Positions 4,098-20,201 of a stretch of 32,000 bases of DNA are shown piece after piece. The notes below the pieces were generated by a model, which did no database searches, had not been told where the DNA came from, and saw only the letters and a list, made by a program, of their open reading frames with translations. A program made the position numbers and the translations under genes. Source of the stretch: Geotalea uraniireducens Rf4 (lineage in GTDB: Bacteria; Desulfobacterota; Desulfuromonadia; Geobacterales; Geobacteraceae); assembly GCF_000016745.1 (NCBI RefSeq), contig NC_009483.1, forward strand, positions 4,020,001 through 4,052,000, in the 5' to 3' direction. Each line of letters begins with the position of its first letter. The first letter of the stretch is position 1.

Positions 4098-5156
4098 CTA
4101 CCGGCGCGCCCCGACGAAGGATACCCGCCGCAGCCAGGCCTCTGTCGGGAAGGCTTGCTCCGTCCAGGTAGCCCCGCCATCCGTGGTGTGCAGGATGATG
4201 CCCCGGTTTTCGGTGCCCCCGCCGACCACCCACGCCTGCCGCTCATCTGTCGCGGTCACGCCCAACAGGTAGAAGCCGGTCCGGGGCACGGTCTGCTTGG
4301 TCCAGGTTGCGCCGCCATCGGTGGTCTTGTGAATGCCGTCGAAATCGGTAACCACCCAGACGGTGGACGAGTTCACCGCGCAGACACCGTTGGCGTCGCC
4401 GGGATCGAGGGATATGACCTGGGTCCAGGTGCTGCCGTCGAGGGTGCGACAGACGACTTGGCCGGGGGGGTTGAGGGGTGTGCCGCCTACAGCCCAGGCG
4501 GAAATGGGACTGAGGGCGCTAACGTCAATCAGGTGGTCGGAGAAGATGCCCGGCCCGCCCTGCCGCGTCCAGTGGGCGCCCCGGTCGGTACTGTACTCCA
4601 CCACCGGATAGTCGGTGCCGCCTTTGTCGCCGACGACCCAGACCGCCCCGGAACCGACCGCGTCCAGCCGCTGGAAGTTCGATGGAGGAATAGCCGGGGT
4701 GTTCTGCTTCACCCAGGTCCGGCCGGCGTCGGTGGTGTGCAGGATAACGCCGCCGGAGCCGCAGGCCCAAGCCTCGCTGGGGCTGACGGCCTTGATGCCG
4801 GACAACTCCTTCCCCGCATCGGGGGGAACCGTCTGCCGGTTCCAGGTGCGTCCGCCGTCGCTCGTGTACAGGATCACGCCGAGGTTCTCCGCGCCACCCA
4901 CTGCCCAGGCGGTGAGGTTGTCCACTGCCGTGACGTCATCAATCTCCACGTTGGGAATCTCCGCGGGCGAGCCTTGCCGCACCCAGGTCCGGCCGCCGTC
5001 GGTGGTGTGCAGGATCACGCCGTAGCCGGCATCCGGCTTGCCCACCGCCCACCCTACCGGCCCTCCCGACCACGAGTCGTTGCCGCCGCACCCCGCGGCC
5101 AGCAGGCTCAGCCCCACCACCACAGTTGCCATCGCTCCATAGACTAACGCACGCAT
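4098..5156 (-). CDS. Lipoprotein with 7-bladed BNR/Asp-box (Ycf48-like) beta-propeller
   Basis: I set the start at ATG 5156, which has GGTGGAGGA 7 nt upstream. The lipobox is LSLLAAGC. There are seven Asp-box repeats: HTTDGGRTW, YTSDGGRTW, HTTDAGRTW, YSTDRGAHW, RTLDGSTW, KTTDGGATW and HTTDGGATW. It is the last gene of the cytochrome cluster, 46 nt after the preceding stop. Confidence 0.8.
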   Translation of the reverse strand: MRALVYGAMATVVVGLSLLAAGCGGNDSWSGGPVGWAVGKPDAGYGVILHTTDGGRTWVRQGSPAEIPNVEIDDVTAVDNLTAWAVGGAENLGVILYTSDGGRTWNRQTVPPDAGKELSGIKAVSPSEAWACGSGGVILHTTDAGRTWVKQNTPAIPPSNFQRLDAVGSGAVWVVGDKGGTDYPVVEYSTDRGAHWTRQGGPGIFSDHLIDVSALSPISAWAVGGTPLNPPGQVVCRTLDGSTWTQVISLDPGDANGVCAVNSSTVWVVTDFDGIHKTTDGGATWTKQTVPRTGFYLLGVTATDERQAWVVGGGTENRGIILHTTDGGATWTEQAFPTEAWLRRVSFVGARR

Positions 5157-5202
5157 CTTCGCATCCTCCACCTGACAGATAAACCCGGGTTCCGAACCAC
5201 CA

Positions 5203-7908
5203 TCACCACGAATAGTTGCTATGATTCTCACCGCCGCAGCTGCCGTTGCAGGTGCCGTGACCGTCCCCTTTTCCCGAACGGGTGTAGGTAAAGCCGCTGG
5301 GCATTTGTATAATCACGTTCGCATCGTTGTGCAGCGTCCTGTTGCTCGGCCCGTGAGTGGATTGCCCGTGGCCTGCTGTACCGTGGCAGCTGGTGCATGC
5401 GATGCTGCCATGATGATCGGTGTGCAGGCCGCCCACGTCAGGGAAAGTGGTGCCGATTGGCCGGCCGGCGTTCGTGCTGCTGCCGTGGCAGGAATAGCAG
5501 CCGGTCGTCGGGCTCCCTTTCGGTGCAGCTTTGGTGTGGCATCCCTGGCAGTCGGGCGGCGTACCGGCAGTCGGAGGATAGGGGTAGCCGGTCGTTTTGC
5601 CGTTGGTGTGGCAGCCGCTCGTCACGCAGCCTGAGAATGGAGAAGCTCCTGCCGCCGACATGTGCGCTGCTCCGGTATAGGGGAAGCTGTGGCCGCCGCT
5701 CGGCTTGAATGCGTCGATGGTCGAACTTCCCGTATGGCTGTGGCAGCTGGTGCAGCGAATGCCGGCGTTGTGCCCGTCGCCGCTCGTCTGGGTATAGTGG
5801 TTGGTCGTGGTATGACAGGCGTTGCAGATGCCGTTGAAGGGGGCCGCGCTCTTCGCATAGTCGGTGCCCGTCGGGGTCGCCGACAGCGTGAAGGTTACGC
5901 TCTGGGAGCTCTGGGTCGTCGGGGCTCCCGTGGCCGCATCGGAAGCCACCGCCACCAGAGAGCGTACCATGAACCGGTTGGCATTGCCGGTGCCGTGCGG
6001 TTCGTGGCAGTCCCAGCAGTATCGACCACCGGAAAGGGTGCTGGTGTGTTTTGCGCCAAAGTGGGAGGAGCCGACCTTGCCGGCGCTGGAAGCGTTCCGG
6101 CTCGCTCCGCCGACCGTCACACCCGCAGAGCCCGCGGCGTGGCAGAGCATGCAGGCGCCGTTTTTACCCCAGGAGGCGTCCGCCAGGTTGCGCAGACGGA
6201 ACGGGTTGGTGGAAACATTATGGGCTATGGTCGAGTCGTGGCACCATTCGCAGTAGCTGGCGACGCCGGTGAAGTTGGCCGGCGGGTTGCCGGAGCCGGG
6301 ATAGTTGCCGGACGCGGTCGGACGGCCGTGACCGTTGTCCGCCCACGACCCGGTGCCGGTCATCTTGAACTTGGAGATGGCGCCGTTGTTCCAGAAGGTG
6401 GCGCCGAAATCGGACACCGAGGCGCTTGCCGCGTTGCCGTGGCAATCCTGGCAGTAGACGGCTGTTGTGCCCCACAGGACTGGATTGCCGCCGTGGCAGG
6501 AAGTGGCCGAACAGCTCTTGGTCCCGGCGGCCCAGGTGGCGCCGCTCCCCGCCTTGGCGCTGTTGAAGGTCACGTCGATGGCGCCGTTGTTATGGAGTAC
6601 CGAGCCTGCCGCGATGGCCGCGCCGGTGCTGGTCGTGCCGTTGTGGCAGGTGGCGCAGTCGGCGGCTGACGTCACATGCTTGGGATGGCTGTTGGCCAGG
6701 ACTGCGGCAGCGCCGGCATTTGCGTAGTCGGGCGCGCCGGTTGTGGTGGAAGCGCCGTGGCAGCCGTTGCACCCAATGGCGGCGCCGGTCCAGGCGGGCG
6801 CGACTGGTTGCGGGGCGGTCGCTTTGCCTGCGCTATGACAGGTGGTGGCTGAACAGGTCTTGGTCCCGGCGTTATAGGTCCCGCCGCCGACAAATGCCAC
6901 TGTTTTGCTTCCATCCACGTGGCTGGCAATCCCGGTGATCAACCGGTCGTTCCCCACGCTGACGGTGCTGCTGTGGCAGCGGGCGCACTCCAGGTTGGTG
7001 CCGAGGAAGGCAGTCTGGTTGATGTGCTTGGGGTGCAGGCCGCTGGCAATGACCGTGGCCGCCGAGGCGTTCCCGCCATGGCAGCCGGAGCAGTCCGCAG
7101 GGAGCGTGCTCCCCCAGACCGCGGCGGTTTTGGGTGCGCCGCCGATGCCGTCGCTGTGGCAGTACAGGGACGAACAGGTCCCGTTGCGGAGCGGATTCCG
7201 GCTCGGCAGGTAGCCGGGATATGTCACGTTGCCCGAATAGCTGCCGCCGCTGTTGGGTGGGGCGCCGAATACGATGATGAGACCCCTTTTACCAACGCTG
7301 GTGGCGTGGGCGAAGGGCTTGGCTTCCGCTGTGTGGTCCGCATGGCATTTTATGCAGGAGCCTGCGCCGGTCCCGTAATAGTCGCCATGCTTCTTGCCCG
7401 GCCCGCTCAGGGACGGATGGTTGCCGTCGCCCGGAGGGGCGCTGTGGCAGGTGCTGCACCCGGCAGGGGACGTGAGCGGCGCTGACGCCCACGGAGTGGT
7501 AACCGCTTCGAAGTGGCAGTTGACCTTGGAACAGGTTCCCATCACGGGAACGGAAGTCTGGTTGAAGAACACCCCTTTGCTGTAGGTGGCTGTGGCAGGC
7601 GAGTTGTAGATGTTGGAAGACAGCTCGATCACGCCGTTCATGTGGTCCTCGGTGTAGGTGCGGCTCCCGGTGTGACAGATCTCGCAGTTGGAAGGCAGGG
7701 CAACTGCCGGCTGGTGGGTTCTATGGCTCCCTCTGAAACCGCCGGTGGTGATGTTGCGGTAGAGCGCATCGATGGGGGGCATGCCGTGACAGTCGGAGCA
7801 GGTGGAAGCCGCCTCAACCGGGGCCGAGGCAACCAGCAAAACTCCCAGGACAAAGAAGATCGTCAAAACAGGTCTCTGCACATATCCCATGCCGTATGCC
7901 GCTCTCAT
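5203..7908 (-). CDS. Secreted multiheme c-type cytochrome, 901 aa (hand count 17 CXXCH + 5 CX4CH)
   Basis: AAGGAG lies 6 nt upstream of ATG 7908. The signal peptide is ...VLGVLLVASAPVEAAS. It carries dense CXXCH and CxxxxCH motifs of the Geobacter CxxxxCH...CXXCH repeat type (TIGR01904, from memory). Its N-terminal 478 aa are nearly identical to the next gene. Confidence 0.9.
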   Translation of the reverse strand: MRAAYGMGYVQRPVLTIFFVLGVLLVASAPVEAASTCSDCHGMPPIDALYRNITTGGFRGSHRTHQPAVALPSNCEICHTGSRTYTEDHMNGVIELSSNIYNSPATATYSKGVFFNQTSVPVMGTCSKVNCHFEAVTTPWASAPLTSPAGCSTCHSAPPGDGNHPSLSGPGKKHGDYYGTGAGSCIKCHADHTAEAKPFAHATSVGKRGLIIVFGAPPNSGGSYSGNVTYPGYLPSRNPLRNGTCSSLYCHSDGIGGAPKTAAVWGSTLPADCSGCHGGNASAATVIASGLHPKHINQTAFLGTNLECARCHSSTVSVGNDRLITGIASHVDGSKTVAFVGGGTYNAGTKTCSATTCHSAGKATAPQPVAPAWTGAAIGCNGCHGASTTTGAPDYANAGAAAVLANSHPKHVTSAADCATCHNGTTSTGAAIAAGSVLHNNGAIDVTFNSAKAGSGATWAAGTKSCSATSCHGGNPVLWGTTAVYCQDCHGNAASASVSDFGATFWNNGAISKFKMTGTGSWADNGHGRPTASGNYPGSGNPPANFTGVASYCEWCHDSTIAHNVSTNPFRLRNLADASWGKNGACMLCHAAGSAGVTVGGASRNASSAGKVGSSHFGAKHTSTLSGGRYCWDCHEPHGTGNANRFMVRSLVAVASDAATGAPTTQSSQSVTFTLSATPTGTDYAKSAAPFNGICNACHTTTNHYTQTSGDGHNAGIRCTSCHSHTGSSTIDAFKPSGGHSFPYTGAAHMSAAGASPFSGCVTSGCHTNGKTTGYPYPPTAGTPPDCQGCHTKAAPKGSPTTGCYSCHGSSTNAGRPIGTTFPDVGGLHTDHHGSIACTSCHGTAGHGQSTHGPSNRTLHNDANVIIQMPSGFTYTRSGKGDGHGTCNGSCGGENHSNYSW
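6503..7332. repeat. 830-bp direct repeat, copy 1 (identical to 10954-11783)
   Basis: Line-by-line comparison at an offset of 4,451 bp shows mismatches only at 6502 and 7333. Spurious ORFs in the track are letter-identical between copies (6590-6772 = 11041-11223; 6672-6929 = 11123-11380; 6905-7213 = 11356-11664). Lower-identity homology extends over 6491-7925. Confidence 0.9.
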
Positions 7909-7932
7909 CTGCGTCTCCTTGCGAATCGGCCC

Positions 7933-7967
7933 GAAGCCGGAAGCAAAAATCCTTTTGTTCCGGCTTC
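7933..7967 (-). other. Intercistronic stem-loop between the 1457-aa and 901-aa cytochrome genes
   Basis: GAAGCCGGAA (7933-7942) pairs with TTCCGGCTTC (7958-7967), a 10-bp perfect stem with a 15-nt loop. No U-tract follows on the minus strand, so it is not a classical terminator. Confidence 0.5.
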
Positions 7968-7985
7968 AGGCGCATTTCTATCCCT

Positions 7986-10900
7986 TTATTTTACGGTGCT
8001 CCATTTCTTGGACGCCTTGAAGTGGCACCTCACGTTGAAACAGCTGCCGGTCGCATTGGCCCCGCCGTCGAGGAGGACGCCGCTGTACTGGTTCGGTCCC
8101 AGTGGCAGCAACGGATTGAATTTATAACGGTCCGCCAAATCGATGGTGATCTTGCTCGGTGCAATCGGCAGCAGCATGGTGTGCGTGGCGGGACTGAACG
8201 AACCGTTGCCGTGGCATGGGGTACAATTGGCCCATCCTTCCGAAGGACGTGCCGTTTTCTTCACATGGCGCGGGAAGAGGTGGGCGCCCCCCCCTCCCGG
8301 ATAATCCTCGGCCCTGGCGCTGGAGTAATTCCCATGGGTGCCGACGAAACCGGCGGGAGCAGGCGGATATCCGTGACACGCGTCGCAATCGGCAGTCGGC
8401 CTGAATGCGTCGATGGTCGAACCTCCCGTATGGCTATGACAACTGGTGCAGCGGACGCCGGCGTTGTGCCCGTCGCCGCTCGTCTGGGTGTAGTGATTGG
8501 TCGTGGTATGGCAGGCATTGCAGACGCCGTTGAAGGGGGCCGCACTGTCCGCGTAGTCGGTGCCGGTCGGGGTCGCCGACAGCGTGAAGGTTACGCTCTG
8601 GGAGCTCTGGGTCGTCGGAGCGCCCGTGGCCGCAGAGGAGGCCACCGCCACCAGAGAGCGGATCATGAGCTGGTTGGTATTGCCGGTGCCGTGCGGTTCG
8701 TGGCAGTCCCAGCAGTATTGCCCGCCGGAAAGGGTGCTGGTGTGTTTTGCGCCAAAGTGGGAGGAGCCGACCTTGCCGGCGCTGGAAGCGTTCCGGCTCA
8801 CGCCGCCGACCGTCACCCCCGCAGATCCCAAGGCGTGGCAGAGCATGCAGACGCCGTTTTTACCCCAGGTGGCGTCCGCCAGGTTGCGCAGACGGAACGG
8901 GTTGGTGGAAACATAATGGGCGATGGTCGAGTCGTGACACCATTCGCAGTAGCTGGCGACGCCGGTGAAGTTGGCCGGCGGGTTGCCGGAGCCGGCGTAG
9001 TTGCCGGACGCGGTCGGGCGGCCGTGACCGTTGTCCGCCCACGACCCGGTGCCGGTCATCTTGAACTTGGAGACGGAGCCGTTGTTCCAGAAGGTGGCGC
9101 CGAAATCGGACACCGAGGCGCTTGCCGCGTTGCCGTGGCAATCCTGGCAGTTGACTGCTGTAACGCCCCACTGGACTGGATTGCCGCCGTGACAGGCGAC
9201 GTTGTTGCAGGTCCCGGCAGCCCACGTGGCCGTCGTCCCGGCTTTGGCTGCGTTGAAGTAGACGTTCGGCGTGCCGTTCAGGTGGTACGAAACAGCCGAG
9301 TAGTCCTTGAACTTGCCGGCGGCGGTCATGCTCGCGCTCTTCACGTGGCAGTTCGAGCAGACGGTGGTGTCGGCTGCACCGGCGACGTGTTTTGAGTGGC
9401 TGTTCGCGGTCGCACTGCCCGCTCCCCCGTTGGCATAATCAGGTGCGCCGATGGCGGAGCTGGTGCCGTGGCAGCCGTTGCAGCCATAGGTGATAGCGGA
9501 GTTCCAGGCAGCCGGGTTGGCGTAGACGATTGCTCCCGGATTGCCGTTGCTGTGGCAGTAGATAGAGAAGCACTGCCTGGTGCTGCGGTTGTATTTTGCG
9601 TTCCCCCCGGCCCTCGCGCCGGTGTAGTCGATAAATTTATTGATATGCCTGCTTTTGTCGCTGATGGTGGTGTTGCCGGCAGCCGTCCTGGCGTGGCAGT
9701 CGATGCAGTTGAGACCGTTGCCGAGTCCAATGATCGGGTTGCCGGCCGGGTTCATGTGCTTGTCGTGCTTGCCGGAAAGCCGGGTTGCGGTCGCACCGGT
9801 CTGCTTGGTGTCGTGGCATTGTACGCAGGTGCCGCTGCCGGCGGTGGTTGACCATGATACCGCCGTGAGGCCGTTGCTCCCCTGGCCGTTGCTGTGACAG
9901 TAGGTCGTGTTGCATCCACCGCCGCCGTTGGTCCATTTGAAACCGTTGTCGGTACCTTGGGTAGTGCCATAGGTGTAGCTCCCCTTGCGGGTGTTGGTGG
10001 TAAAGCCGTAAAACACTTCGGCTGCCCCCACCGCATTGGCAGGCCCTCCGGCATGGGTGGCCTTGCCCGCGCCTGAAGCGTGGCAGGACGAACAGGTGAA
10101 GCGATAGGCGGTTGCGCTGCTCACGTTGCCGGAGAAGTTGACGAATCTGGTCGGCAGCGCCGTGCCGGCATAGTGGATGCCGTGGGCGCCTGGAAGGGCG
10201 TTGTTGGCGGAATGGCACGCGTTGCAGGCCAGCGACGGCGCCCCCCATGGCGCCGAGGCCGCCGCACCGTGACAGTATGTGGCGGAACAGGTGGAGCCGT
10301 TCCAGCTGCCGGTGCTCCCCCCTATCGGCTTGAAGATCACGTTCGGCGTTCTGTTCAGGTGGTAACTGCCGGCGGTGTAGTCCTTGAACGCCCCGGCTCT
10401 GGTCTGGCTGACGGTCTTGGCATGGCAGTTTGCGCACCCCCTGGTGTCGATTATGCCTGCCCCGGCAACGTGCTTCGGATGGCTGTTTGCGGTCGTAGTC
10501 CCGGCTCCGCCATTGGCATAGTCCGGTGCGCCGGTTGTGGTGGAAGTGCCGTGGCAGCCGTTACACCCCATGGTCGCAGTGCTGCTCCAGGCAGGCGGGT
10601 TGACGGACACCAGGCTGCCCGGATTGCCGTTACTATGACAGTAGAGGTTGGTGCAGAGTTTGGTGGAGGCATTGTAATTCGCACTGCCACGGGCTTTTGC
10701 GCCGGAATAATCCACGAATCCGTTATTATGGTTGGCCGGGTTGGATATGGTCCGGTTGGCGCTCACGGTCTTGGCGTGACATTCGACACAGCCGAAATTG
10801 TTGCCGAGCCCGAGAATTGTGGGGTTGTTGACATGGGCGGTATGTTTACCCGTTGCAATGGCACTGGCGCTGGTGCTGTCGCCGCCGTGGCAACCGGTGC

Positions 10901-12359
10901 AGTCGGTCGGGAGCGTCCCCCCCCATACCGGCGCACTGGTCCCGTGGCAGGAGGTGGCCGAACAGCTCTTGGTCCCGGCGGCCCAGGTGGCGCCGCTCCC
11001 CGCCTTGGCGCTGTTGAAGGTCACGTCGATGGCGCCGTTGTTATGGAGTACCGAGCCTGCCGCGATGGCCGCGCCGGTGCTGGTCGTGCCGTTGTGGCAG
11101 GTGGCGCAGTCGGCGGCTGACGTCACATGCTTGGGATGGCTGTTGGCCAGGACTGCGGCAGCGCCGGCATTTGCGTAGTCGGGCGCGCCGGTTGTGGTGG
11201 AAGCGCCGTGGCAGCCGTTGCACCCAATGGCGGCGCCGGTCCAGGCGGGCGCGACTGGTTGCGGGGCGGTCGCTTTGCCTGCGCTATGACAGGTGGTGGC
11301 TGAACAGGTCTTGGTCCCGGCGTTATAGGTCCCGCCGCCGACAAATGCCACTGTTTTGCTTCCATCCACGTGGCTGGCAATCCCGGTGATCAACCGGTCG
11401 TTCCCCACGCTGACGGTGCTGCTGTGGCAGCGGGCGCACTCCAGGTTGGTGCCGAGGAAGGCAGTCTGGTTGATGTGCTTGGGGTGCAGGCCGCTGGCAA
11501 TGACCGTGGCCGCCGAGGCGTTCCCGCCATGGCAGCCGGAGCAGTCCGCAGGGAGCGTGCTCCCCCAGACCGCGGCGGTTTTGGGTGCGCCGCCGATGCC
11601 GTCGCTGTGGCAGTACAGGGACGAACAGGTCCCGTTGCGGAGCGGATTCCGGCTCGGCAGGTAGCCGGGATATGTCACGTTGCCCGAATAGCTGCCGCCG
11701 CTGTTGGGTGGGGCGCCGAATACGATGATGAGACCCCTTTTACCAACGCTGGTGGCGTGGGCGAAGGGCTTGGCTTCCGCTGTATGGTCCGCATGGCATT
11801 TTATGCAGGAGCCTGCGCCGGCCCCGTAATAGTCGCCATGCTTCTTGCCCGGCCCGCTCAGGGACGGATGGTTGCCGTCGCCCGGTGGGGCGCTGTGGCA
11901 GGTGCTGCACCCGGTGGGGGACGTGAGTGGCGCTGACGCCCACGGCGGGGTGACCGCTTCGAAGTGGCAGTTGACATTGGAACAGGTCCCCATCACGGGG
12001 ATGGTGGTCTGGTTGAAGAATACCCCTTTGCTGTAGGTGGCTGTGGCAGGCGAGTTGAAGATGTTGGAAGACAGCTCGATCACCTCGTCCATGTGGTCCT
12101 CGGTGTAGGTGCGGCTCCCGGTGTGACAGATCTCGCAGTTGGAAGGCAGGGCAACTGCCGGCTGGTGGGTCTGGTGGCTCCCCCTGAAACCGCCGGTGGT
12201 GACGTTGCGGTAGAGCGCATCAATGGGTGGCATGCCATGACAGTCGGAGCAGGTGGAAGCCGCCTCAGCCGGGGCCGAGGAAACCAGCAAAGCTCCCAGG
12301 GCAAAGAAGATCGTCAAAACAGGTCTCTGCACATATCCCATGCCATGTGTCATTCTCAT
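7986..12359 (-). CDS. Secreted multiheme c-type cytochrome, 1457 aa (hand count 26 CXXCH + 10 CX4CH)
   Basis: AGGAGG lies upstream of ATG 12359, followed by a signal peptide. A roughly 190-aa heme supermodule is repeated. The C-terminal CDACHGYPP...CFNVRCHFKASKKWSTVK domain is shared with the upstream cytochrome. Confidence 0.9.
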   Translation of the reverse strand: MRMTHGMGYVQRPVLTIFFALGALLVSSAPAEAASTCSDCHGMPPIDALYRNVTTGGFRGSHQTHQPAVALPSNCEICHTGSRTYTEDHMDEVIELSSNIFNSPATATYSKGVFFNQTTIPVMGTCSNVNCHFEAVTPPWASAPLTSPTGCSTCHSAPPGDGNHPSLSGPGKKHGDYYGAGAGSCIKCHADHTAEAKPFAHATSVGKRGLIIVFGAPPNSGGSYSGNVTYPGYLPSRNPLRNGTCSSLYCHSDGIGGAPKTAAVWGSTLPADCSGCHGGNASAATVIASGLHPKHINQTAFLGTNLECARCHSSTVSVGNDRLITGIASHVDGSKTVAFVGGGTYNAGTKTCSATTCHSAGKATAPQPVAPAWTGAAIGCNGCHGASTTTGAPDYANAGAAAVLANSHPKHVTSAADCATCHNGTTSTGAAIAAGSVLHNNGAIDVTFNSAKAGSGATWAAGTKSCSATSCHGTSAPVWGGTLPTDCTGCHGGDSTSASAIATGKHTAHVNNPTILGLGNNFGCVECHAKTVSANRTISNPANHNNGFVDYSGAKARGSANYNASTKLCTNLYCHSNGNPGSLVSVNPPAWSSTATMGCNGCHGTSTTTGAPDYANGGAGTTTANSHPKHVAGAGIIDTRGCANCHAKTVSQTRAGAFKDYTAGSYHLNRTPNVIFKPIGGSTGSWNGSTCSATYCHGAAASAPWGAPSLACNACHSANNALPGAHGIHYAGTALPTRFVNFSGNVSSATAYRFTCSSCHASGAGKATHAGGPANAVGAAEVFYGFTTNTRKGSYTYGTTQGTDNGFKWTNGGGGCNTTYCHSNGQGSNGLTAVSWSTTAGSGTCVQCHDTKQTGATATRLSGKHDKHMNPAGNPIIGLGNGLNCIDCHARTAAGNTTISDKSRHINKFIDYTGARAGGNAKYNRSTRQCFSIYCHSNGNPGAIVYANPAAWNSAITYGCNGCHGTSSAIGAPDYANGGAGSATANSHSKHVAGAADTTVCSNCHVKSASMTAAGKFKDYSAVSYHLNGTPNVYFNAAKAGTTATWAAGTCNNVACHGGNPVQWGVTAVNCQDCHGNAASASVSDFGATFWNNGSVSKFKMTGTGSWADNGHGRPTASGNYAGSGNPPANFTGVASYCEWCHDSTIAHYVSTNPFRLRNLADATWGKNGVCMLCHALGSAGVTVGGVSRNASSAGKVGSSHFGAKHTSTLSGGQYCWDCHEPHGTGNTNQLMIRSLVAVASSAATGAPTTQSSQSVTFTLSATPTGTDYADSAAPFNGVCNACHTTTNHYTQTSGDGHNAGVRCTSCHSHTGGSTIDAFRPTADCDACHGYPPAPAGFVGTHGNYSSARAEDYPGGGGAHLFPRHVKKTARPSEGWANCTPCHGNGSFSPATHTMLLPIAPSKITIDLADRYKFNPLLPLGPNQYSGVLLDGGANATGSCFNVRCHFKASKKWSTVK
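10954..11783. repeat. 830-bp direct repeat, copy 2 (identical to 6503-7332)
   Basis: See copy 1. The offset is exactly 4,451 bp and the orientation is the same. Confidence 0.9.
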
Positions 12360-12446
12360 GTCCGCCTCCTTACGATGTGCTGTTCGTTTATCGTATAAGT
12401 TTACAGATCATGCGGCGTTGACTTTCAGGTTCGGATTGCTGCTCCC

Positions 12447-15400
12447 TTATTTCACGGTGCTCCATTTCTTGGACGGCTTGAAGTGGCACTTCACGTTGGT
12501 ACAGCTGCCGGTCGCATTGGCCCCGCCGTCGAGGAGGATGCCGCTGTACCACCCCGGCCCCAGTTGCAGCAACGGATTGAACTTGTAACGGTCCGCCACG
12601 TCGATGGTGATCCTGCTCGGCGTAACCGGCAGCACCATGGTGTGCGTGGCGGGACTGAGCGAGCCGTGGCTGTGGCATTGGGCACAGTTGGCCCATCCTT
12701 CCGATGGACGCGCCGTTTTCTTCACGTGGCGCGGGAAGAGGTGGGCGCCCCCCCCTCCCGGATAATCCTCGGCCCTGGCGCTGGAGTAATTCCCATGGGT
12801 ACCGACGAAACCGACCGACGCCGGCGGATATCCGTGACAGGTATCACAGGCGCCGCTGGGTTGGAAGGCGAAAGCAGCCTTGTGGTTGTGGCATGACAGG
12901 CAGAACCCGGTCGGGTGGCCGTCCGGCGCCTGGCCCGCCCGGTAGTGGTTGGTTGCCGTGTGACAGGCCTGGCAAAGCCCGTCGAACGGGGGAACGGTTT
13001 TGACGAATCCGCTCGACAGGCTGGTGAAGCTGATGACTTTGCCGTTGATGGAGGTCTTGACCATGGAGAGGTTTGTCGTGCCATGGATATCGTGACACGA
13101 TTTACAGTCGCTCACGGCGGCTCCCCCCTTGACGAGCACGTGGGAGACCATCTTCTGTCTGGCGGGTGTCGGCACTTTGCCGGCGTCGTTATGACAGGAG
13201 GCGCAGAGACTGTTGTCGTCGGGGAGTGAAAGTCGTTTGTAACCCCCCAGCTTGCCGGAGATGTGCGGACTGTCCTGGTCATGGCAGGAGGTGCACTGGT
13301 TGCTGGCGGGAAACCGGCCGTGACCGGTCACGCCGAAGTTCGCCTTATAAGGCGCAGCCACGCCATTGGGAAGCACGGAGGGGAGTGCGGCATGGCAGGA
13401 GGTGCAGACAAGGCGGGTTGCAATCGTCCATGGAGGAATGGCCGCCGGGTGGCAGTTGGCGCAGGCGGAACCGGCGCCGGCAACCGCATCGACAGTGCCG
13501 TTGACATGGGTGGGGGCGGTATCGGTCGTATAGACATGGCAATTCTGGCAGACCGAGGGGTAGAGCGTGCCGAAATTCGGACCGTAGGGGGTGGTGAAGT
13601 GGGCGTTATGGGCATTGGTTGCCGGGACCGCGGCATGGCATGAACCGCAGGCCCCGCTTGCGGCGTTGAGCCAGTTCGGGGCCGTTAATGGAGCACCACC
13701 GCTACCGTCGCTGTGACACTTGCCGCCGGTACAGGTTGCGGCTGCCTCGTTCCAGACCGTGGCGGACGTCAATGGATCGGCAGTACTGAACACGACCGTT
13801 TTAACGCCATCAACATGCCTGGTCATGTCGGAGATGGTCGTATTGCTTGCAACAGTCGCGGCATGACAGGAGATGCAGCCGTACCCCCGGCTCAGGTGCT
13901 TGCCGTGCACGTTGCTGGTCGGTAAAGCCTCGTGACACATGCCGCATTCTCCAACAACGCCGGCTATGGTCCCCTTGCCGTTCGGCCAGACGACCGTCTG
14001 ATAAGTCAGCGTGCCGCCCCGCGGCGCGCCGTTGCTGTGACAGTAGACCGTGTTGCACGATCTGGCGGCCGGATCATATGCGGCGCCCGGTCCGGCGACA
14101 ATGCCGCTCTTGTCCATGAAGACATCCTGAAACGTCCCCGAGTTATGGGTATTCCCCTTGTGACACTCGTTGCAGGCATAACTGTTCGGCGCCCCGCCGG
14201 CATGGCTTGCGTGGGGCGTCCGCGATTCGTCGCTGAACGACGGCCGGGTGCTGTAAGCCGCCGCATATCCGTCAGGCCCCGCCGGCGTGTTGCTCTTCGG
14301 CGGATATCCGTGACATGAGGTGCATCCCCCTGCTACTGCCGAAAAAGCGCCCGTCGGATTGTTATGGAAATGACAGCCGTTGCAGACGCCGGCCGGTGCC
14401 GTAGCGAGGCTGTGCTCCGACGGGTAGCTGCCGCCGGTCGGGACCGCATGGCAGGCCTGGCAGACGCCGGTACCGTTCGCATCCTTGTAATTTCCGGCCG
14501 TAACCGAGGTGTATTGGAACAGCACCTTTCGGTTCCTCACCGAGCCGGAAGCGGTGGACACGTTCATATACCGCCTGACCAGATATGTATTGGCAACGGT
14601 CCCGTCTGCCAGGTCCACGTGGCCGGCGTGGCAGTCGGCGCACTGGACATTCTGGCTCCTGCCATTGTGATTCTGCTTGATATGGCAGTTGGTGCAGATG
14701 TTGGGGGCAGCCGCCGTTGCCCCTCGCAAATCAGTGCGCAGCAGGTAACCGGCGGAAGGTTTGAGCTTGTTGTATGTGGAATAGCCGTCAAAGGTCGAGC
14801 TGTCGGAATCGGCATAATGGACACCGTGACAGGTTGTACAGAGGACCGTTCCGCCCGCGAGCTTCATGGCAGAGGTTGGGTTGGAGGGGTTGCTGTTGAG
14901 CGGCGGGTTGTTGAATTCCGCCGGCTTGATTTTCACGAGCGAAGCGGCGCTCGTGTAATTGAAGTTGACCGGATGGGTGCCGACGGTATGGTCGATGGTG
15001 TTTCTGACCCGGTGGCAGTCAAGGCACATCTGGTCCCTGTCATTTGCCATGCGGAGGAACGGTCGGAAGATTTGAAGATGGGGATTATGACAGCGTGAAC
15101 AGGCGATCGTACCGACCGTCATGAGGGGGCCGGAAGCGCCGGAATTCAGCGCCTGACTCAAAGGCGGAAGCGCACCCGCTGCGGGAAGGTTGTCGGAGCC
15201 GACCCAGTTATGGGAGGTCTGATATAAGACTCCGGTCCGTACCGTCGGAAAGGTATGGAAAGGATCGGCGGCATCAACCGGGGTAAAAGGCTTCTTTCCC
15301 CCCTTGGCGATCCCCGGCCTGTGGCAGGTAAGGCAGACGTTAATCAGGCCCGCGCTGCCCAGGGTTTCCTGAATCGTATGACAAGTTGAACAGGTATAGC

Positions 15401-15500
15401 CGTTGCTCGGATCGTGGGGCGGATCGACTGCCAAAACCCCGACTGGGAAGAGTACCACGAGGATAGCGGCAAGAAGCTGGTAAACGACTGATCTTTTCAT
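12447..15500 (-). CDS. Secreted multiheme c-type cytochrome, 1017 aa (hand count 24 CXXCH + 3 CX4CH)
   Basis: I set the start at ATG 15500 (MKRSVVYQLLAAILVVLFPVGVLA), which has GGGAG 6 nt upstream. The N-terminal part has paired CXXCH..H motifs (CSRCHNPH...CLDCH, CTTCHGVH, CADCHAGH). The C-terminal 135 aa are about 90 percent identical to the C-terminus of the 1457-aa protein. Confidence 0.9.
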   Translation of the reverse strand: MKRSVVYQLLAAILVVLFPVGVLAVDPPHDPSNGYTCSTCHTIQETLGSAGLINVCLTCHRPGIAKGGKKPFTPVDAADPFHTFPTVRTGVLYQTSHNWVGSDNLPAAGALPPLSQALNSGASGPLMTVGTIACSRCHNPHLQIFRPFLRMANDRDQMCLDCHRVRNTIDHTVGTHPVNFNYTSAASLVKIKPAEFNNPPLNSNPSNPTSAMKLAGGTVLCTTCHGVHYADSDSSTFDGYSTYNKLKPSAGYLLRTDLRGATAAAPNICTNCHIKQNHNGRSQNVQCADCHAGHVDLADGTVANTYLVRRYMNVSTASGSVRNRKVLFQYTSVTAGNYKDANGTGVCQACHAVPTGGSYPSEHSLATAPAGVCNGCHFHNNPTGAFSAVAGGCTSCHGYPPKSNTPAGPDGYAAAYSTRPSFSDESRTPHASHAGGAPNSYACNECHKGNTHNSGTFQDVFMDKSGIVAGPGAAYDPAARSCNTVYCHSNGAPRGGTLTYQTVVWPNGKGTIAGVVGECGMCHEALPTSNVHGKHLSRGYGCISCHAATVASNTTISDMTRHVDGVKTVVFSTADPLTSATVWNEAAATCTGGKCHSDGSGGAPLTAPNWLNAASGACGSCHAAVPATNAHNAHFTTPYGPNFGTLYPSVCQNCHVYTTDTAPTHVNGTVDAVAGAGSACANCHPAAIPPWTIATRLVCTSCHAALPSVLPNGVAAPYKANFGVTGHGRFPASNQCTSCHDQDSPHISGKLGGYKRLSLPDDNSLCASCHNDAGKVPTPARQKMVSHVLVKGGAAVSDCKSCHDIHGTTNLSMVKTSINGKVISFTSLSSGFVKTVPPFDGLCQACHTATNHYRAGQAPDGHPTGFCLSCHNHKAAFAFQPSGACDTCHGYPPASVGFVGTHGNYSSARAEDYPGGGGAHLFPRHVKKTARPSEGWANCAQCHSHGSLSPATHTMVLPVTPSRITIDVADRYKFNPLLQLGPGWYSGILLDGGANATGSCTNVKCHFKPSKKWSTVK

Positions 15501-15620
15501 GCCAAACTCCCGGGAGCACAAATACTTCAGCTATCTGCATGGAAGGGCCAATGGCGATACCATCTTTGCAGGCTTTTCGAATTTATTGCATCAGGGTAAA
15601 GACTGGCAATTACAAGAACC

Positions 15621-15651
15621 CGTTTCCGTCACGCAGGGCGTGACGGAAACG
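15621..15651 (-). terminator. Stem-loop downstream of the lipoprotein gene and upstream of the cytochrome operon
   Basis: CGTTTCCGTCACG / CGTGACGGAAACG forms a 13-bp perfect stem with a 5-nt loop. On the minus strand it is followed by GGTTCTTGTAATT, which is only moderately U-rich. Confidence 0.5.
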
Positions 15652-15714
15652 TTCGATCCAACAGTTTCTCAAGCTTGGTCCGTCGTCAGACCGGTTTTCA
15701 TGCCTCCTCCTGCA

Positions 15715-16908
15715 TCACATGACCGTCAGGGCGGGTGTAAGACCGCTGATGGGGGCGCCGTTCTGGTCAACGACAGGCCCGAAAGAAATCACAACGAATT
15801 GGGATGGAGTGGGGACGTTAACCCCGGCAGCCACATCGCAGTTTATGGTCACGAATTCACCCACGCCGAAACCCGAAGAGCTGATGAGGGCCAACGTCAC
15901 CGTGCCCGGGACTGCACCAGATGCGGGTACGTATTTTGCGGCAACAAACGACCCGGTCGCCGCTGCACCCGACGCGGTTACGACCCCGGCAAGGGGTTGA
16001 CCGTTGGAGAAGTCGGCCCTCAATGTCACGCCGGTGGGAAGGCTGAATGTCGCCTCCAGCCCTCCGATGAGGGTGCCGGGAGAGAGGGTGCCGACGGTGC
16101 TCAGCTTGACGACCGCACTGAGGCCGCCGATGCCGGCAAGATTCGTCTGGTTGATGTCGGTTACGCCGGTCTGGTTGTTCGGACCGGAGAGGAACGCGGT
16201 CACTGCATCCGTCAGGGCGGTGGCGGATGCAACCGAAAGGTTGCCTGCGTTATTGATGTCATTGCTCAATGGGGCCAATGCGGCCTGCAATCCGCCCGAC
16301 GTCCTTGCCAATTGGGAAATTCCGGCCAGAAGGATGGTGTAGTCCTTCTGGGACTGGCTTGCAGCGGCAAAGGCAGTTGCAGATGGTTCAACCGGCTTGG
16401 TTGCGATGATGTCCACCATGAACAAATCCGTCACCAATGCATTGGCCGACGTGATCGCGGTTGGCGGCAGGGACGTGTCACCCGCCTTCACCACGGCAAG
16501 TTCGGTGATCGGCGTGACGGATACGGAGACGTTCCCGCTCGCACCGGCAACTGCCGCCCTCAGCGGCATCGGCAGGGGAACGGGGGAGGCGGATGACGAA
16601 GCAGACTCGTCCTTGTATGTCCCTCCGGTCACCCGAACGAGGAGGGCTCCCGAATAGGGACCTACACTTACGCTATAGCTCCCGTCAGCGTTGGTCGATC
16701 CAGTCCCTATGGGTACAGCGCCGACTGCGCCGCTCTGGTCCACGGCAAAGACGTTCACCGTTCCTCCGTTGATCAACCCCTTTGCGGCTACTCCGCTTAC
16801 CACCGTGGCGGGGGGTGCGGGAGTTCCGCCACCTCCGCCACCGCAGCCCCATATCGTCGAGGCGACGATAAGAGAAAATGTCAGGCCGAAAAGTTTAGTA
16901 ATTTTCAT
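15715..16908 (-). CDS. Lipoprotein of unknown function (397 aa), Gly/Ala/Thr/Ser-rich
   Basis: The lipobox is ASTIWGC, followed by a GGGGGG linker. The N-terminal GLINGGTVNVFAVD...TNADGSYSV resembles a carboxypeptidase-regulatory-like beta-sandwich. I recognise no other family. Confidence 0.7.
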   Translation of the reverse strand: MKITKLFGLTFSLIVASTIWGCGGGGGGTPAPPATVVSGVAAKGLINGGTVNVFAVDQSGAVGAVPIGTGSTNADGSYSVSVGPYSGALLVRVTGGTYKDESASSSASPVPLPMPLRAAVAGASGNVSVSVTPITELAVVKAGDTSLPPTAITSANALVTDLFMVDIIATKPVEPSATAFAAASQSQKDYTILLAGISQLARTSGGLQAALAPLSNDINNAGNLSVASATALTDAVTAFLSGPNNQTGVTDINQTNLAGIGGLSAVVKLSTVGTLSPGTLIGGLEATFSLPTGVTLRADFSNGQPLAGVVTASGAAATGSFVAAKYVPASGAVPGTVTLALISSSGFGVGEFVTINCDVAAGVNVPTPSQFVVISFGPVVDQNGAPISGLTPALTVM

Positions 16909-16967
16909 AGCGCGTCACCTTTTGTAACAATGAAAGCCGATTAGTACCAATCTTCTGAAAGATCAAG

Positions 16968-17090
16968 TCCCCCTTTATGAAAGGGGGATTTAGGGGGATT
17001 TGCCTTTCATCGCAGCCAGGAAAATCCCCCCTTGCCCCCCTTTCTCAAAGGGGGGTAACTTCTGCAGGGGTGTTTCCGTAACACCCCTGC
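16968..17090. repeat. Cluster of G5/C5-based palindromes and GGGGGATTT repeats in the NHL-lipoprotein spacer
   Basis: Three hairpins are present: TCCCCCTTT-atg-AAAGGGGGA (16968-16988), CCCCCCTTT-ctc-AAAGGGGGG (17035-17055) and GCAGGGGTGT-ttccgta-ACACCCCTGC (17064-17090). A tandem AGGGGGATTT x2 (16982-17001) is complementary to AAAATCCCCC (17021-17030), and ATGAAAGG pairs with CCTTTCAT, so alternative pairings are possible. Confidence 0.7.
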
Positions 17091-17101
17091 CCGGGATATT
17101 T

Positions 17102-19843
17102 CTACCAATTGACCAGGCCGACTGCTTTGCGCAGGATCACCAACGCATCGCCCACGTCGATTACTCCATCGGGCGACGGTTTACCGTCGATCAACGGTGC
17201 AACATCTCCGTGAAGAAGGTCGTTGTCGGTCTGGGTCAGAAGCCCGGCAGAGATTTGCAGTGCCCTGAGGGCGTCTACGATGTCCACTTTGCCGTTGCCA
17301 TCCAGGTCGCCGTCGGGGACGTTTGCCGCAGAGGCCAGTGTTTTCGTGCTCTTGTTCCCGGCGGCATCGGTCGCCGTTATGACGAGCGTTGACGGATCAT
17401 AGCTTGCGCCGGTCAGATCCAGGCTCCACGTGCCGCTCGTCGCACTCAACGTTCCGACGTTGCCGGTCTTGTCCTTGGCCGACAAGACCGCATCAGGTTC
17501 CATTGTCCCGCCGATATGAGTCGGCATAGGACCGGAAACAGGACTCATCGTTAACCGCGGCAGGGTCGTGTCGTAGATGACGTTACGGAATGTGGTGGCG
17601 ACATTGCCGGCATTGTCGGTCGCCTTGACAGCCACTGTGTAAACGCCTTCCGTCGGCAAATCCACCGTAAAACCGTAAGCGCCGTTGCTGGGAGCTACCG
17701 GTCTCTCGACCCCGTTGATTGAGGCCGTCAGTGCAGCGCCGCTGGATGCGGTCCCGCTTATGTTCAGATTCCCCTGGCTCGTGGCGAAATCCTGACCGGG
17801 AACCGTTACTGCTACCTCCGGCCCGGCAGGTTTGCATGTGATTGTTCTTTTCATGGCAGAACTCGCGCCGCTCAAGTCGGTCACCTTTATCTCGATAGTA
17901 TTGATGCCCGGAGCCAGGTTTACCAATGCGCTCCAGTTACCCTCGCTCACCTGGGCAGTTACCCCGTTCACGAGCACTGTGTTGTTGACGCCCGCTGTAC
18001 CGCTGACAGTCAGAGTACCGGCACTCGTGACGGAGCCGTCGACAGGCGAGACGACCGTAAATAGCGGCCTTGTTGCATCGAAAACAATGGTTCTCCTGTC
18101 GGTAGTCATGTTGCCCGCCAGGTCCTTCGCAACAACGGTTATGCTATTGGCGCCGTTGTTGAGAATCACCGGCATGCTGAATGCCCCATTTACAACCATT
18201 GCCGGCTGACTATTAACCGCTACCCGGTCAAAGTGGTCGTCCACAACGCTTCCCACAATATTCTGCACCTGAAGAGAAGTCGTAATGCCATCGGCAAGGG
18301 CTGAAACGGCAAGTGTCGGCGGAGTATCGTCCAGGACGATGACGACGCTTTCCGAGGTGCTCCCTCCTCCGGTTTTAGCCGCTGTTACCGTGATCTTGTT
18401 GTCACCGGGAACGAGCCCGGATATATCGCATTTCCAGGAAGTTGCGGTCGGGTAGACAACGGTCCCGGCCACGGCGCCGGTATTGGATCCGATGCTGACC
18501 GTTGCGCCATTATTGATGGTGCCGCTGATGGTCTGACTGTTGATATTGGTCAGAGCTGTTACCGGGTTGATGACAAGTTTCGGTGCGGCCACATCGAAGG
18601 TAACGGATGCTGTTTTCTTTGTCACATTGCCGGAAGCATCCGTAGCTGTCACAGTAATACCATTCACTCCGGGCACGAGACCGGAAACAGTATAACTCCA
18701 GGTAGTTCCCGTAACGGTCGCCTTGCCGCCTATGGCTGCAACGTCGCCGGCCACGGTGACGGTCGCCCCCGCGCTTACGTTCCCGCCGATAGTAAGATTC
18801 GGTACGTTGGTGCTCGTGGGAACAGGGTTCAAGGTCAGAACAAGCTGGGTTGCACCCGGGCTTGTTCCTGCGGCATCGCCTATTCCGTATACCGTCAGAT
18901 TGCCGTATCCGTTGGCAACGATCAGTCTGCTGTTGGAGGCGTCGAAAACAGCGTCCGAAGGAGCCATCAGTTGTCCGTTGTTCGCCCCATAACTTCCGAC
19001 AAAATTAAGAAAGGCGCCGCCTCCCTGAGGGTCGATTGCCTGTAGGTTACTCTGGAAGACATCAACCACATAGATTCTCTTTACCGCAGGAACCGGGTCT
19101 TTGGTGTATTCGAAGACAACCGCCTGCGGCGACGTGAATTTCAGCGGACCTGACCCGTAAGAACCCAGTGATTTCTGATAAATGCCTTGAAGACTGAAAA
19201 ACTGCACCCGGCCGTTCAGGGTATCGGCAACCGCCAACTGGTTCGAACTCTTCTCATAGGTTATGCCGGCCGGAACCGAGAACTGGCCGGGAAGATTCCC
19301 GAACGAACCGAAACTGTTGGCAGGCTTGCCGAGAGCAGCGGAGGCCATGACGATCGGGGCGCCCTTTGTGTTGAAAACCTGAACACAGTTGTCGAGACTG
19401 TCAACCACATAGATAAAGCCGGCAGAGTCTGTCGTTACACCATTGGCCATTTTGAACTGGCCGGTCCCGATCCCCAGACGGCTGATTTCCACGCCGTTTT
19501 TGTCGACGACTGCCGCATAATTACCTTGGGTTACGACCAGGTTCCCGTCCGGCGTCAAGGCCACCCCCTGGGGTGATTTAGCGGTCTTGATGACCTGCAA
19601 AAGCTTGCCGGAGCTGCTGTATTTCAACAACCCGCCCCCCCGGGGGTCGGCCAGGTACAGGTTCCCCTGCTGGTCAATTGCAACCCTGATGGGAGAGCTG
19701 ACCCCTTCCGTCACGAGGCTCAGCGGCGTCACCTGCGGAAGGGGTGAGGCGCAGGTCGTGCCTGCCTGAAATATGCAAAAAAGCGCAGACGGGAGAACAA
19801 CGCTAATTAAATTCTTCTTAACCAATGATACCAAAAAATCCAT
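17102..19843 (-). CDS. Secreted NHL-repeat beta-propeller / Ig-like repeat / C-terminal dockerin-like protein (913 aa)
   Basis: It begins with a signal peptide. Six NHL-like blades follow (e.g. PIRVAIDQQGNLYLAD, PQGVALTPDGNLVV, ANGVTTDSAGFIYVVDSLDNCVQVF, PAGITYEKSSNQLAVADTLNGRVQFF). At least six Ig-like repeats end in motifs such as GVNGITVTATDASGN, GANSITVVAKDLAGN and GVYTVAVKATDNAGN. The C-terminal pair of Ca-binding-type loops is DGDLDGNGKVDIVDALRALQ and GDVAPLIDGKPSPDGVIDVGDALVILR. Confidence 0.85.
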   Translation of the reverse strand: MDFLVSLVKKNLISVVLPSALFCIFQAGTTCASPLPQVTPLSLVTEGVSSPIRVAIDQQGNLYLADPRGGGLLKYSSSGKLLQVIKTAKSPQGVALTPDGNLVVTQGNYAAVVDKNGVEISRLGIGTGQFKMANGVTTDSAGFIYVVDSLDNCVQVFNTKGAPIVMASAALGKPANSFGSFGNLPGQFSVPAGITYEKSSNQLAVADTLNGRVQFFSLQGIYQKSLGSYGSGPLKFTSPQAVVFEYTKDPVPAVKRIYVVDVFQSNLQAIDPQGGGAFLNFVGSYGANNGQLMAPSDAVFDASNSRLIVANGYGNLTVYGIGDAAGTSPGATQLVLTLNPVPTSTNVPNLTIGGNVSAGATVTVAGDVAAIGGKATVTGTTWSYTVSGLVPGVNGITVTATDASGNVTKKTASVTFDVAAPKLVINPVTALTNINSQTISGTINNGATVSIGSNTGAVAGTVVYPTATSWKCDISGLVPGDNKITVTAAKTGGGSTSESVVIVLDDTPPTLAVSALADGITTSLQVQNIVGSVVDDHFDRVAVNSQPAMVVNGAFSMPVILNNGANSITVVAKDLAGNMTTDRRTIVFDATRPLFTVVSPVDGSVTSAGTLTVSGTAGVNNTVLVNGVTAQVSEGNWSALVNLAPGINTIEIKVTDLSGASSAMKRTITCKPAGPEVAVTVPGQDFATSQGNLNISGTASSGAALTASINGVERPVAPSNGAYGFTVDLPTEGVYTVAVKATDNAGNVATTFRNVIYDTTLPRLTMSPVSGPMPTHIGGTMEPDAVLSAKDKTGNVGTLSATSGTWSLDLTGASYDPSTLVITATDAAGNKSTKTLASAANVPDGDLDGNGKVDIVDALRALQISAGLLTQTDNDLLHGDVAPLIDGKPSPDGVIDVGDALVILRKAVGLVNW

Positions 19844-20192: not shown

Positions 20193-20201
20193 TGGTATAA
20201 T
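20193..20201 (+). promoter_or_regulatory. Extended -10 promoter element (TGGTATAAT)
   Basis: A perfect TGnTATAAT lies at 20193-20201, about 145 nt upstream of the OMP gene start. The -35 is weak. There is no transcript evidence. Confidence 0.4.

Follow-up and report, generated by a model that had tools for sequence, protein, structure and literature searches.

In Geobacter sulfurreducens, the genes GSU2885-GSU2882 have been described as the 'OmcAHG' operon, which lies under tandem cyclic GMP-AMP (cGAMP) riboswitches of the GEMM-Ib type, is expressed at a 16-fold lower level in a gacA mutant (i.e., without cGAMP), and, for the reduction of Fe(III) oxides, is co-regulated with the extracellular cytochromes OmcS and PgcA (PMC6456294). 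Passages of PMC1950547 and PMC2825233 cite omcG and omcH as required in this organism to make OmcB and to reduce Fe(III) optimally, and a passage of the former cites an effect of OmcG/H loss on the OmcB level that is post-transcriptional. A survey from 2024 classed OmcA, OmcH, and OmcG as extracellular by prediction, and its AlphaFold models of these proteins are long single-chain multi-heme wires (PMC11492766); OmcG and OmcH have also been called outer-membrane c-cytochromes, many of which are enriched in outer-membrane vesicles, the enrichment not being stated for OmcG/H specifically (PMC13442872). Multiheme cytochrome genes adjoin genes for NHL beta-propellers in D. ferrophilus, where the propellers were proposed to stabilize outer-membrane cytochrome complexes (PMC5815863), and the gene for the NHL protein GSU2505 adjoins omcS (PMC9070056). 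The present analysis concerns a cluster of six genes, designated A to F, that resembles the OmcAHG operon and occupies positions 4098-19843 of a 32,000-nucleotide (nt) window of the Geotalea uraniireducens Rf4 genome (contig NC_009483.1, positions 4,020,001 to 4,052,000); all coordinates below are those of the window unless another locus is named.

Work on Geobacter has so far focused on porin-cytochrome conduits and on the OmcS, OmcE, and OmcZ filaments, rather than on how very large outer-surface cytochromes that lack an anchor are positioned and retained. In the cluster described here, the gene for an NHL-immunoglobulin (Ig) protein with a putative C-terminal dockerin (F) is directly followed by the gene for a lipoprotein with a predicted cohesin-like domain (E), and we consider it reasonably likely that lipoprotein E holds the scaffold F, which would in turn organize anchorless heme rods at the cell surface. 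The OmcAHG/NHL cassette itself is already known; what is new here is the pairing of a dockerin with a cohesin-like lipoprotein, together with an interchangeable slot that separates the genes for the NHL protein and the giant cytochrome, and no prior description of either was found in the literature searched.

Relationship of the cluster to the OmcAHG operon

Read along the minus strand, the cluster begins with F (17102-19843; 913 amino acids (aa)), the NHL-Ig protein with a dockerin-type end, and with the lipoprotein gene E (15715-16908; 397 aa). These are followed by the OmcA-family cytochrome D (12447-15500; 1017 aa from an ATG, the longest open reading frame (ORF) being 1024 aa from a TTG at 15521), by the OmcH/OmcG-type cytochromes C (7986-12359; 1457 aa) and B (5203-7908; 901 aa), and by the BNR/Ycf48-like protein A (4098-5156 when read from the ATG that yields a signal peptide of the lipoprotein type; a GTG at 5231 opens the longest ORF). 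The ORF coordinates agree with the six co-oriented minus-strand genes reported in the original prediction, which was made from the sequence alone, as well as with its gaps of 87 (D-C), 77 (C-B), and 46 nt (B-A) within the cytochrome/BNR block; the E-D and F-E gaps are 214 and 193 nt, respectively.

D is 58% identical to OmcA of G. sulfurreducens (GSU2884) at 100% coverage and has the same 24+3 count of heme motifs, and pairwise BLAST gave 46% identity over the full length between F and GSU2885, and 57-60% identity over the N-terminal ~500-620 residues between B and C and OmcH/OmcG. B is 60% identical to OmcG and 48% identical to OmcH, and the N-terminus of C is 57% identical to OmcH/OmcG of G. 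sulfurreducens. The order in the G. sulfurreducens locus is NHL-Ig protein (888 aa), OmcA (1038 aa, 24+3), an 895-aa and a 710-aa cytochrome, which are OmcH and OmcG, ResB, and CcsA; similarly, the G. uraniireducens cluster places an NHL-Ig-dockerin-type protein before a 27-heme OmcA-type cytochrome and two OmcH/OmcG-type cytochromes with CX4CH/CXXCH motifs. The two loci differ, however, in that only the window has a lipoprotein gene, E, between the NHL and OmcA-type genes; the downstream genes are ResB/CcsA in G. sulfurreducens but a BNR lipoprotein in the window; the middle cytochrome of the window is larger, with 36 hemes; and the window is without the GEMM-I riboswitch that 6/6 orthologous loci carry in tandem or single form.

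Genes of strain Rf4 have been tabulated as homologs of omcG, omcH, and GSU2884 (PMC9961858), and from this table we infer that D is Gura_3428 and C is Gura_3427. No literature was found on the probable locus tags Gura_3426-3430, and no biochemical or structural characterization of the giant cytochromes was found in the literature searched. Taken together, the sequence comparisons indicate that the cluster is a G. uraniireducens copy of a modular, multi-copy Geobacterales cassette with GSU2885-2882 as its prototype. Because the same cassette has already been named in Geobacter, the cluster is not a new machine; the original prediction of an undescribed electron-transfer or redox-scaffold system fails on the orthology of the core to a named and genetically studied operon with the same NHL neighbor. 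Likewise, its description of an uncharacterized architecture of heme rods and propellers had been anticipated, as OmcA/H/G were already predicted heme wires (PMC11492766) and the adjacency of cytochrome and NHL genes had been noted (PMC5815863, PMC9070056).

Conservation was surveyed with an alignment of the OmcA family, run against one genome for each GTDB species, which gave 212 relatives; 79 loci were fetched, 73 of which had enough upstream sequence for the NHL-adjacency test. In 64/73 loci, the OmcA-family gene is immediately preceded, on its own strand, by an NHL gene, and the upstream gene combines NHL with Ig domains in 56 loci. The F-E-D-C order is found again in two Geomonas loci (L008 and L026) and on one metagenome contig (L091). 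In 51 of the 77 loci there were two to four consecutive ORFs with 10 or more heme motifs, and because such runs of several giant cytochromes are common among related loci, the 27/36/22 set of the window is typical. The largest single cytochromes in the survey have 44 heme motifs; these proteins of 1800-2017 aa, encoded at 16079-21478 of L015 and 13402-19452 of L033, are bigger than any cytochrome of the window. The linkage that had been expected for the genes flanking the cytochromes was found for the NHL propeller (64/73) and the lipoprotein, but not for the BNR propeller A (0/79).

A carries the lipobox LAAGC and matches PSII_BNR at 79.6 bits (cut-off 27); against the NCBIfam Ycf48 equivalog PRK13684 it scored 76.9 bits, below the cut-off of 326. 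An identity as a Ycf48 photosystem II assembly factor was rejected on this score and because the host is a non-phototroph, and only membership of the PSII_BNR domain family was retained. Homologs of A number more than 5300 in many phyla, from archaea to Chloroflexi. The closest is a metagenomic copy with 92% identity, the next distinct relative reaches 48%, and a relative with 45% identity (P0183) lies in a neighborhood without cytochromes. From the short gap to B of 46 nt and a GGAGGA ribosome-binding site, A is probably co-transcribed with B. Because no A-like gene was found in any of the 79 related loci, the family is huge and scattered, and the context of the relative is free of cytochromes, A is best regarded as a lineage-specific addition outside the conserved cassette, i.e., a local add-on. 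A conserved second propeller was likewise rejected (0/79 loci, generic family), and the earlier picture of two propellers framing the cluster gives way to one in which the BNR propeller is incidental and has no conserved linkage.

The CXXCH and CX4CH heme motifs number 24+3 (27) in D, 26+10 (36) in C, and 17+5 (22) in B, exactly as first counted, for a total of 85 with none double-counted. Residue shuffles of each cytochrome averaged 0.3 motifs and never exceeded 4, and the observed counts are therefore far above chance; the His residues outside the motifs (32 in D, 41 in C, and 31 in B) are sufficient for bis-His ligation. The three proteins match Cytochrome_C7, Cytochrom_c3_2, GSu_C4xC__C2xCH/TIGR01904, and Paired_CXXCH (Pfam, NCBIfam), with TIGR01904 reaching E=1e-87 over nine stretches in C and E=2e-36 in B, and all 27 heme motifs of D are invariant in a 12-sequence family alignment. 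C contains nine tandem CX4CH-CXXCH-CXXCH triads spaced ~105-125 residues apart. When a c7-type multidomain (GSU1996-like) organization was considered, the Cytochrome_C7 Pfam matches and the nine triads of C were found, but no significant sequence match to solved structures was, and C had no match among PDB sequences. The N-terminal region of the D family showed a weak local match to OmcE (E=1e-4), and an AlphaFold2 (AF2) model of D from 12 sequences had a mean predicted local distance difference test (pLDDT) score of 28.9. Read directly from the sequence, the N-termini of B, C, and D are hydrophobic, signal-like segments with no Cys and hence no lipobox, which agrees with the Sec signals and missing lipoboxes reported earlier for all three. 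Altogether, these data show D, C, and B to be predicted Sec-exported c-type cytochromes with repeated CX4CH/CXXCH triheme modules that are probably c7-like.

B and C are very recent duplicates, with B a recent paralog of C. The first 1418 nt of the two genes (nt 1-1418 of each) share 97% DNA identity, and nt 1409-2209 of B are 93% identical to nt 3164-3964 of C, i.e., ~800 nt match again once 1745 nt are removed from C; from this two-part match, B is C minus an internal 14-heme block of 1745 nt and with a different tail. Residues 642-1457 of C are 36% identical to residues 287-1017 of D, the C-terminal part of C being D/OmcA-like, and a stretch of 300 nt at the 3' ends (7971-8270 and 12432-12731), which reaches beyond the stop codon, is 87% identical between C and D. 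The B/C and C/D DNA identities indicate that the three cytochrome genes have recently undergone duplication or gene conversion, and the cytochrome family evolves via gain and loss of modules plus gene conversion, which fits the range of sizes in other loci. The part of the window that holds the cytochrome/BNR block (4001-15000) has a G+C content of 61-68% and a positive GC skew, and the flanks on both sides have 43-57% G+C.

Pfam and NCBIfam searches of A to F gave no match to a barrel family, and they confirmed that the cluster is without a porin or a small periplasmic cytochrome. It was also correct that the cluster is neither a porin-cytochrome conduit nor a small-subunit filament, since no barrel, no 8-12-heme partner, and no 4-8-heme subunit was found in it. 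The sole barrel gene nearby, an OMP_b-brl gene at 20342-21022 on the plus strand and divergent from F, encodes 226 aa; it was rejected as a hidden porin on its OmpA/OmpW-like size and its absence from all related loci.

The dockerin-type module of F and the lipoprotein slot

F, a putative secreted protein, is composed of a six-bladed NHL propeller (~aa 40-325), about six Ig-like domains (~aa 335-842), and a C-terminal dockerin-type module (aa 843-913; 17105-17317, minus strand). Its Pfam matches are NHL, SGL (weak), Glucodextran_B (four copies), Big_13, and Big_6, and residues 41-310 match NHL propellers in the PDB. The dockerin-type module has two calcium-loop/helix repeats, GDLDGNGKVDIVDAL... 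and ...PDGVIDVGDALVILRK. Among the C-termini of the F family, 31 of 50 match Dockerin_1 (PF00404), with a best E of 1e-6, and a profile of the family's dockerins finds the solved dockerins 5m2o_B (5e-4), 4uyq_B, 1ohz_B, and 8ajy_B at E values from 5e-4 to 5e-2. At the family level, these data support a dockerin-type module at the end of F.

E has the lipobox IWGC followed by a poly-Gly run (a Gly6 linker), and the protein matched no family in Pfam or NCBIfam. An AF2 model of E from 19 family members (pLDDT 88.3) predicts a transthyretin-like sandwich at aa 35-128, a helical bundle at aa 133-241, and a cohesin-like beta-sandwich at aa 263-396 (15721-16122). In a Foldseek search of this model against the PDB, many cohesins were retrieved with a probability of 0.96-1.00, target-normalized template modeling (TM) scores of ~0.35-0.52, and E values of 3e-3 to 5e-2.

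The position of the E gene relative to dockerins was the same in every context. An E-family gene lies directly after a dockerin-ending gene in 9/9 contexts, with dockerin hidden Markov model (HMM) E values of 1e-15 to 1e-32, and a dockerin-ending upstream gene is also what accompanies the E family where cytochromes are missing (L002, L004, L005, L092, and L093). The dockerin-ending partners themselves vary, consisting of NHL and Ig domains, of a true Pfam cohesin and Ig domains, of BNR/Sortilin and Ig domains in a flagellar cluster, or of no known domain. Across the 8096 ORF segments of all fetched loci, 27/31 cohesin-like lipoprotein ORFs directly follow a dockerin ORF; on reading of the output, the other four were attributed to three over-long stop-to-stop ORF calls and one contig without an upstream gene. 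True Pfam cohesin domains are present in dockerin-ending proteins beside E homologs in Oryzomonas sagensis and Geobacter sp. FeAm09. Of the evidence for a dockerin/cohesin-like partnership, this gene adjacency is the strongest. The E-F pairing thus appears to be a docking partnership, and E is proposed as a candidate membrane anchor for the dockerin of F. The spread of the E family beyond cytochromes hints at a general surface-display system.

A role for E as a cytochrome-specific partner was rejected, since its homologs are also found beside non-cytochrome surface proteins. E-family loci lie at 7666-9966 of L004, 7798-9966 of L005, 11515-16606 of L002, and 4120-8964 of L092. Other neighbors of the family are a Big_9 protein with two multicopper-oxidase genes in Geobacter sp. 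DSM 9736, and a flagellar gene cluster.

Across the 56 NHL+Ig loci, the slot that separates the NHL gene from the gene for the giant cytochrome was scored, and it was called empty where the gap was under 450 nt. The slot was empty in 13/56 loci, as it is in the OmcAHG operon of G. sulfurreducens, it was filled by a tetraheme cytochrome of 257-311 aa in 20/56, and it held a lipoprotein in 22/56. Twenty-one of these lipoproteins are 146-190 aa long with an L-x-G-C-G-G-G-G lipobox and linker; L026 has a full-length E-type gene, and the ORF call in L031 was ambiguous. Full-length E-type lipoproteins are encoded in the window, in the Geomonas loci L008 and L026, and in the metagenome contig L091. 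A profile HMM of the short lipoproteins matches E at residues 265-384 (E=4e-12), and on this match the short lipoproteins correspond to the C-terminal domain of E. The slot-type tetraheme of G. sulfurreducens (GSU2886 type) is a homolog of OmcE (7TFS, E=1.7e-20). Tetraheme slots lie at ~9000-9970 in L012-L014, L017, L025, L033-L041, and others, and at 377-1216 in L006 (G. sulfurreducens).

With respect to regulation, GEMM-I (cyclic di-GMP-I/cGAMP) riboswitches lie directly upstream of the NHL gene in all six orthologous loci scanned (L006, L008, L009, L010, L026, and L091), mostly in tandem. The riboswitch is a matter of regulation and is not a defining trait of the cassette proteins. A search of the window for a GEMM riboswitch was negative both at the gathering threshold and at a limit of E<=10, and scans of the cluster leaders for other Rfam elements gave nothing real; the leader of F (19844-20341) consists of 498 AT-rich nt. 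The window copy seems to have lost or replaced its second-messenger control. The F-E spacer (16909-17101, minus strand) has a GC-rich hairpin immediately behind the stop codon of F and then a long hairpin rich in G5/C5; the RNA fold of the spacer has a free energy of -89.2 kcal/mol (z = -6.2 versus shuffles), and a terminator-like site is located at 16988-16968. The hairpin may be a partial terminator/attenuator, an RNA-stability element, or a repeat element. Matches of microRNA models to the spacer were set aside as spurious, as they merely flag the long hairpin. Between E and D, a terminator-like 14-bp stem is located at 15621-15651 (minus strand), detected in a consensus scan in which such sites were no commoner than in shuffles.

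Outside the cluster, the window contains a tRNA-Sec gene at 23694-23787 on the plus strand (Rfam, 79.5 bits), and a mechanical ORF on the minus strand (23680-24111) overlaps with it. Two copies of a direct repeat of 53 nt, 83% identical and with a T-run at the end, lie at 25052-25104 and 26505-26557 and flank an SPFH/Band 7 gene (25474-26433).

Proposed attachment of the giant cytochromes and alternative explanations

In the arrangement proposed here, heme would be attached to the cytochromes D, C, and B in the periplasm, and the proteins would then be moved to the outer cell face by an export route that is not encoded in the cluster. At the surface, as has been suggested for OmcA/H/G, the heme rods could serve as long single-chain conduits or contacts that lead to Fe(III)/Mn(IV) oxides or to other acceptors outside the cell. 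F would act as a protein-protein scaffold that holds or organizes the rods, and it would be tethered to the membrane through binding of its dockerin to the cohesin-like domain of E. In paralogous cassettes, the slot would instead be filled by a short lipoprotein of the same domain, by an OmcE-like tetraheme, or by nothing, and A would be a local add-on. The near-constant NHL-Ig partner of the cytochromes (64/73), its dockerin, and a lipoprotein of cohesin-like fold as the invariable neighbor where present would together amount to a concrete attachment mechanism. A modular slot could explain the diversity of surface wiring among the Geobacterales, and it is of practical interest for the engineering of electrode or mineral contacts. 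More tentatively, and with some doubt on our part, the same arrangement might represent a cellulosome-like docking system for redox display in the Geobacteraceae, in which dockerin-ending surface proteins (NHL-Ig partners, cohesin-bearing adaptors, and others) plug into cohesin-like lipoproteins (the E family and its ~180-aa short form, encoded immediately downstream), with the content of the slot deciding how the heme rods are attached.

Several observations weigh against attachment of the heme rods through F and E. The Foldseek search of E gave no match at E<=1e-3, and the cohesin assignment is one of predicted fold: a Pfam search of 21 members (E and short lipoproteins) was negative for cohesin at the sequence level, a PDB profile search returned signal-peptide or lipoprotein-like matches only, and hhalign against the true cohesin-bearing neighbor gave a probability of 0.2%. 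F alone matches Dockerin_1 at E=0.03 and 14.8 bits, under the cut-off of 22.9, so that the dockerin first proposed for F stands for the family but not for the window protein taken by itself. Most Gram-negative lipoproteins face the periplasm, and an F-E complex could therefore be periplasmic. In the loci with an empty slot (13/56, as in the prototype) and in the ~20 tetraheme loci, any anchor would have to be encoded elsewhere. The adjacency counts carry an ascertainment bias, as loci were picked via the cytochrome or via E. With no GEMM-I riboswitch, regulation, and possibly role, may differ from the prototype, and, in view of the F-E and E-D hairpins, the six genes may form one transcript or several. 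Finally, heme loading, location, and binding of these proteins are all predictions.

It is also conceivable, though in our judgment unlikely, that F helps in the assembly, folding, or secretion of the giant cytochromes or is an enzyme for them, in line with a suggestion made for GSU2505, in which case the F-E pairing would only position F. Some NHL/SGL propellers are enzymes, and F itself gave a weak SGL match, but no catalytic motif was identified in F. That the dockerin and E-family pairing is also found on proteins unrelated to cytochromes, as in a general surface-display device, is compatible with such a helper, as is the altered OmcB level after OmcG/H loss that is cited in the passage of PMC1950547. 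However, a stalk of about six Ig domains together with a dockerin is what proteins displayed at the surface, rather than chaperones, typically have, and the 64/73 adjacency with anchorless cytochromes fits a stable partnership equally well.

Quite improbable, in our estimation, is a periplasmic location of the cytochromes, as electron-storage capacitors or as wires from inner-membrane quinol oxidases to outer-membrane conduits, with F and E on the inner leaflet of the outer membrane. Such a location would suit a cluster that has no porin, no cytochrome lipobox, and no secretion gene, and default lipoprotein sorting points E and A to the periplasm; moreover, a large pool of predicted periplasmic wire cytochromes, which may link both membranes, has been described (PMC11492766). 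The same survey nevertheless predicted OmcA/H/G to be extracellular, OmcG and OmcH have been called outer-membrane c-cytochromes (PMC13442872), and the prototype operon is co-regulated with the extracellular OmcS and PgcA (PMC6456294), and dockerin, Ig, and NHL architectures are typical of surface display. The view of the original prediction that the six genes together, with the lipoprotein and both propellers, constitute a single undescribed electron-transfer machine draws on their co-orientation, on the short gaps within D-C-B-A, and on the structure or biochemistry of any component not having been found in the literature searched, but it is very improbable given a core orthologous to OmcAHG with the same NHL neighbor, the absence of the generic A from 79/79 loci, and the pairing of E with dockerin rather than with cytochromes.

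Comparison with known systems

Like the porin-cytochrome conduits (MtrCAB, OmaB/OmbB/OmcB, and ExtABCD), the cluster presumably delivers electrons to extracellular acceptors by means of multiheme c-type cytochromes. Unlike these conduits, however, it has neither a barrel nor a periplasmic partner of 8-12 hemes, none of its cytochromes is a lipoprotein, and they are 3-4 times larger. The legend of Fig. 5 in PMC11492766 lists GSU2884 among cytochromes of porin-cytochrome operons; in the G. sulfurreducens locus L006 (NHL, OmcA, OmcH, OmcG, ResB, and CcsA), no barrel or porin gene was present among the called genes. The nanowire filaments OmcE, OmcS, and OmcZ are similar in that extracellular heme wires are proposed for both, and an OmcE homolog fills ~20 of the paralogous slots. 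The filaments, however, are polymers of 4-8-heme subunits, whereas the wires of the window would be single polypeptides of 22-36 hemes, and no gene for an OmcE-like 4-8-heme filament subunit was found in the window.

The NHL genes of the D. ferrophilus locus DFE_448-465 adjoin, and are co-expressed with, those for large multiheme cytochromes, and their products were proposed as complex stabilizers that replace the barrel (PMC5815863). That locus belongs to a different lineage with different cytochrome families, and the comparison with F is one of architecture. In the literature found, cohesins and dockerins were described only from archaea that oxidize methane anaerobically (ANME) and bacteria that reduce sulfate (SRB), as adhesins, in genomes of electron-exchanging consortia (PMC9012536, PMC10553843). 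The cluster shares with cohesin-dockerin assemblies, i.e., cellulosomes and the ANME/SRB adhesins, a cargo protein that ends in a dockerin-type module with two calcium loops and an adjacent gene for an anchored, cohesin-like beta-sandwich. It differs from them in that E is cohesin-like by predicted fold and not by sequence, and binding is here a proposal. Moreover, the anchor would be a lipoprotein rather than an S-layer-bound scaffoldin, and in place of a glycoside hydrolase the cargo would be an NHL propeller with a link to cytochromes.

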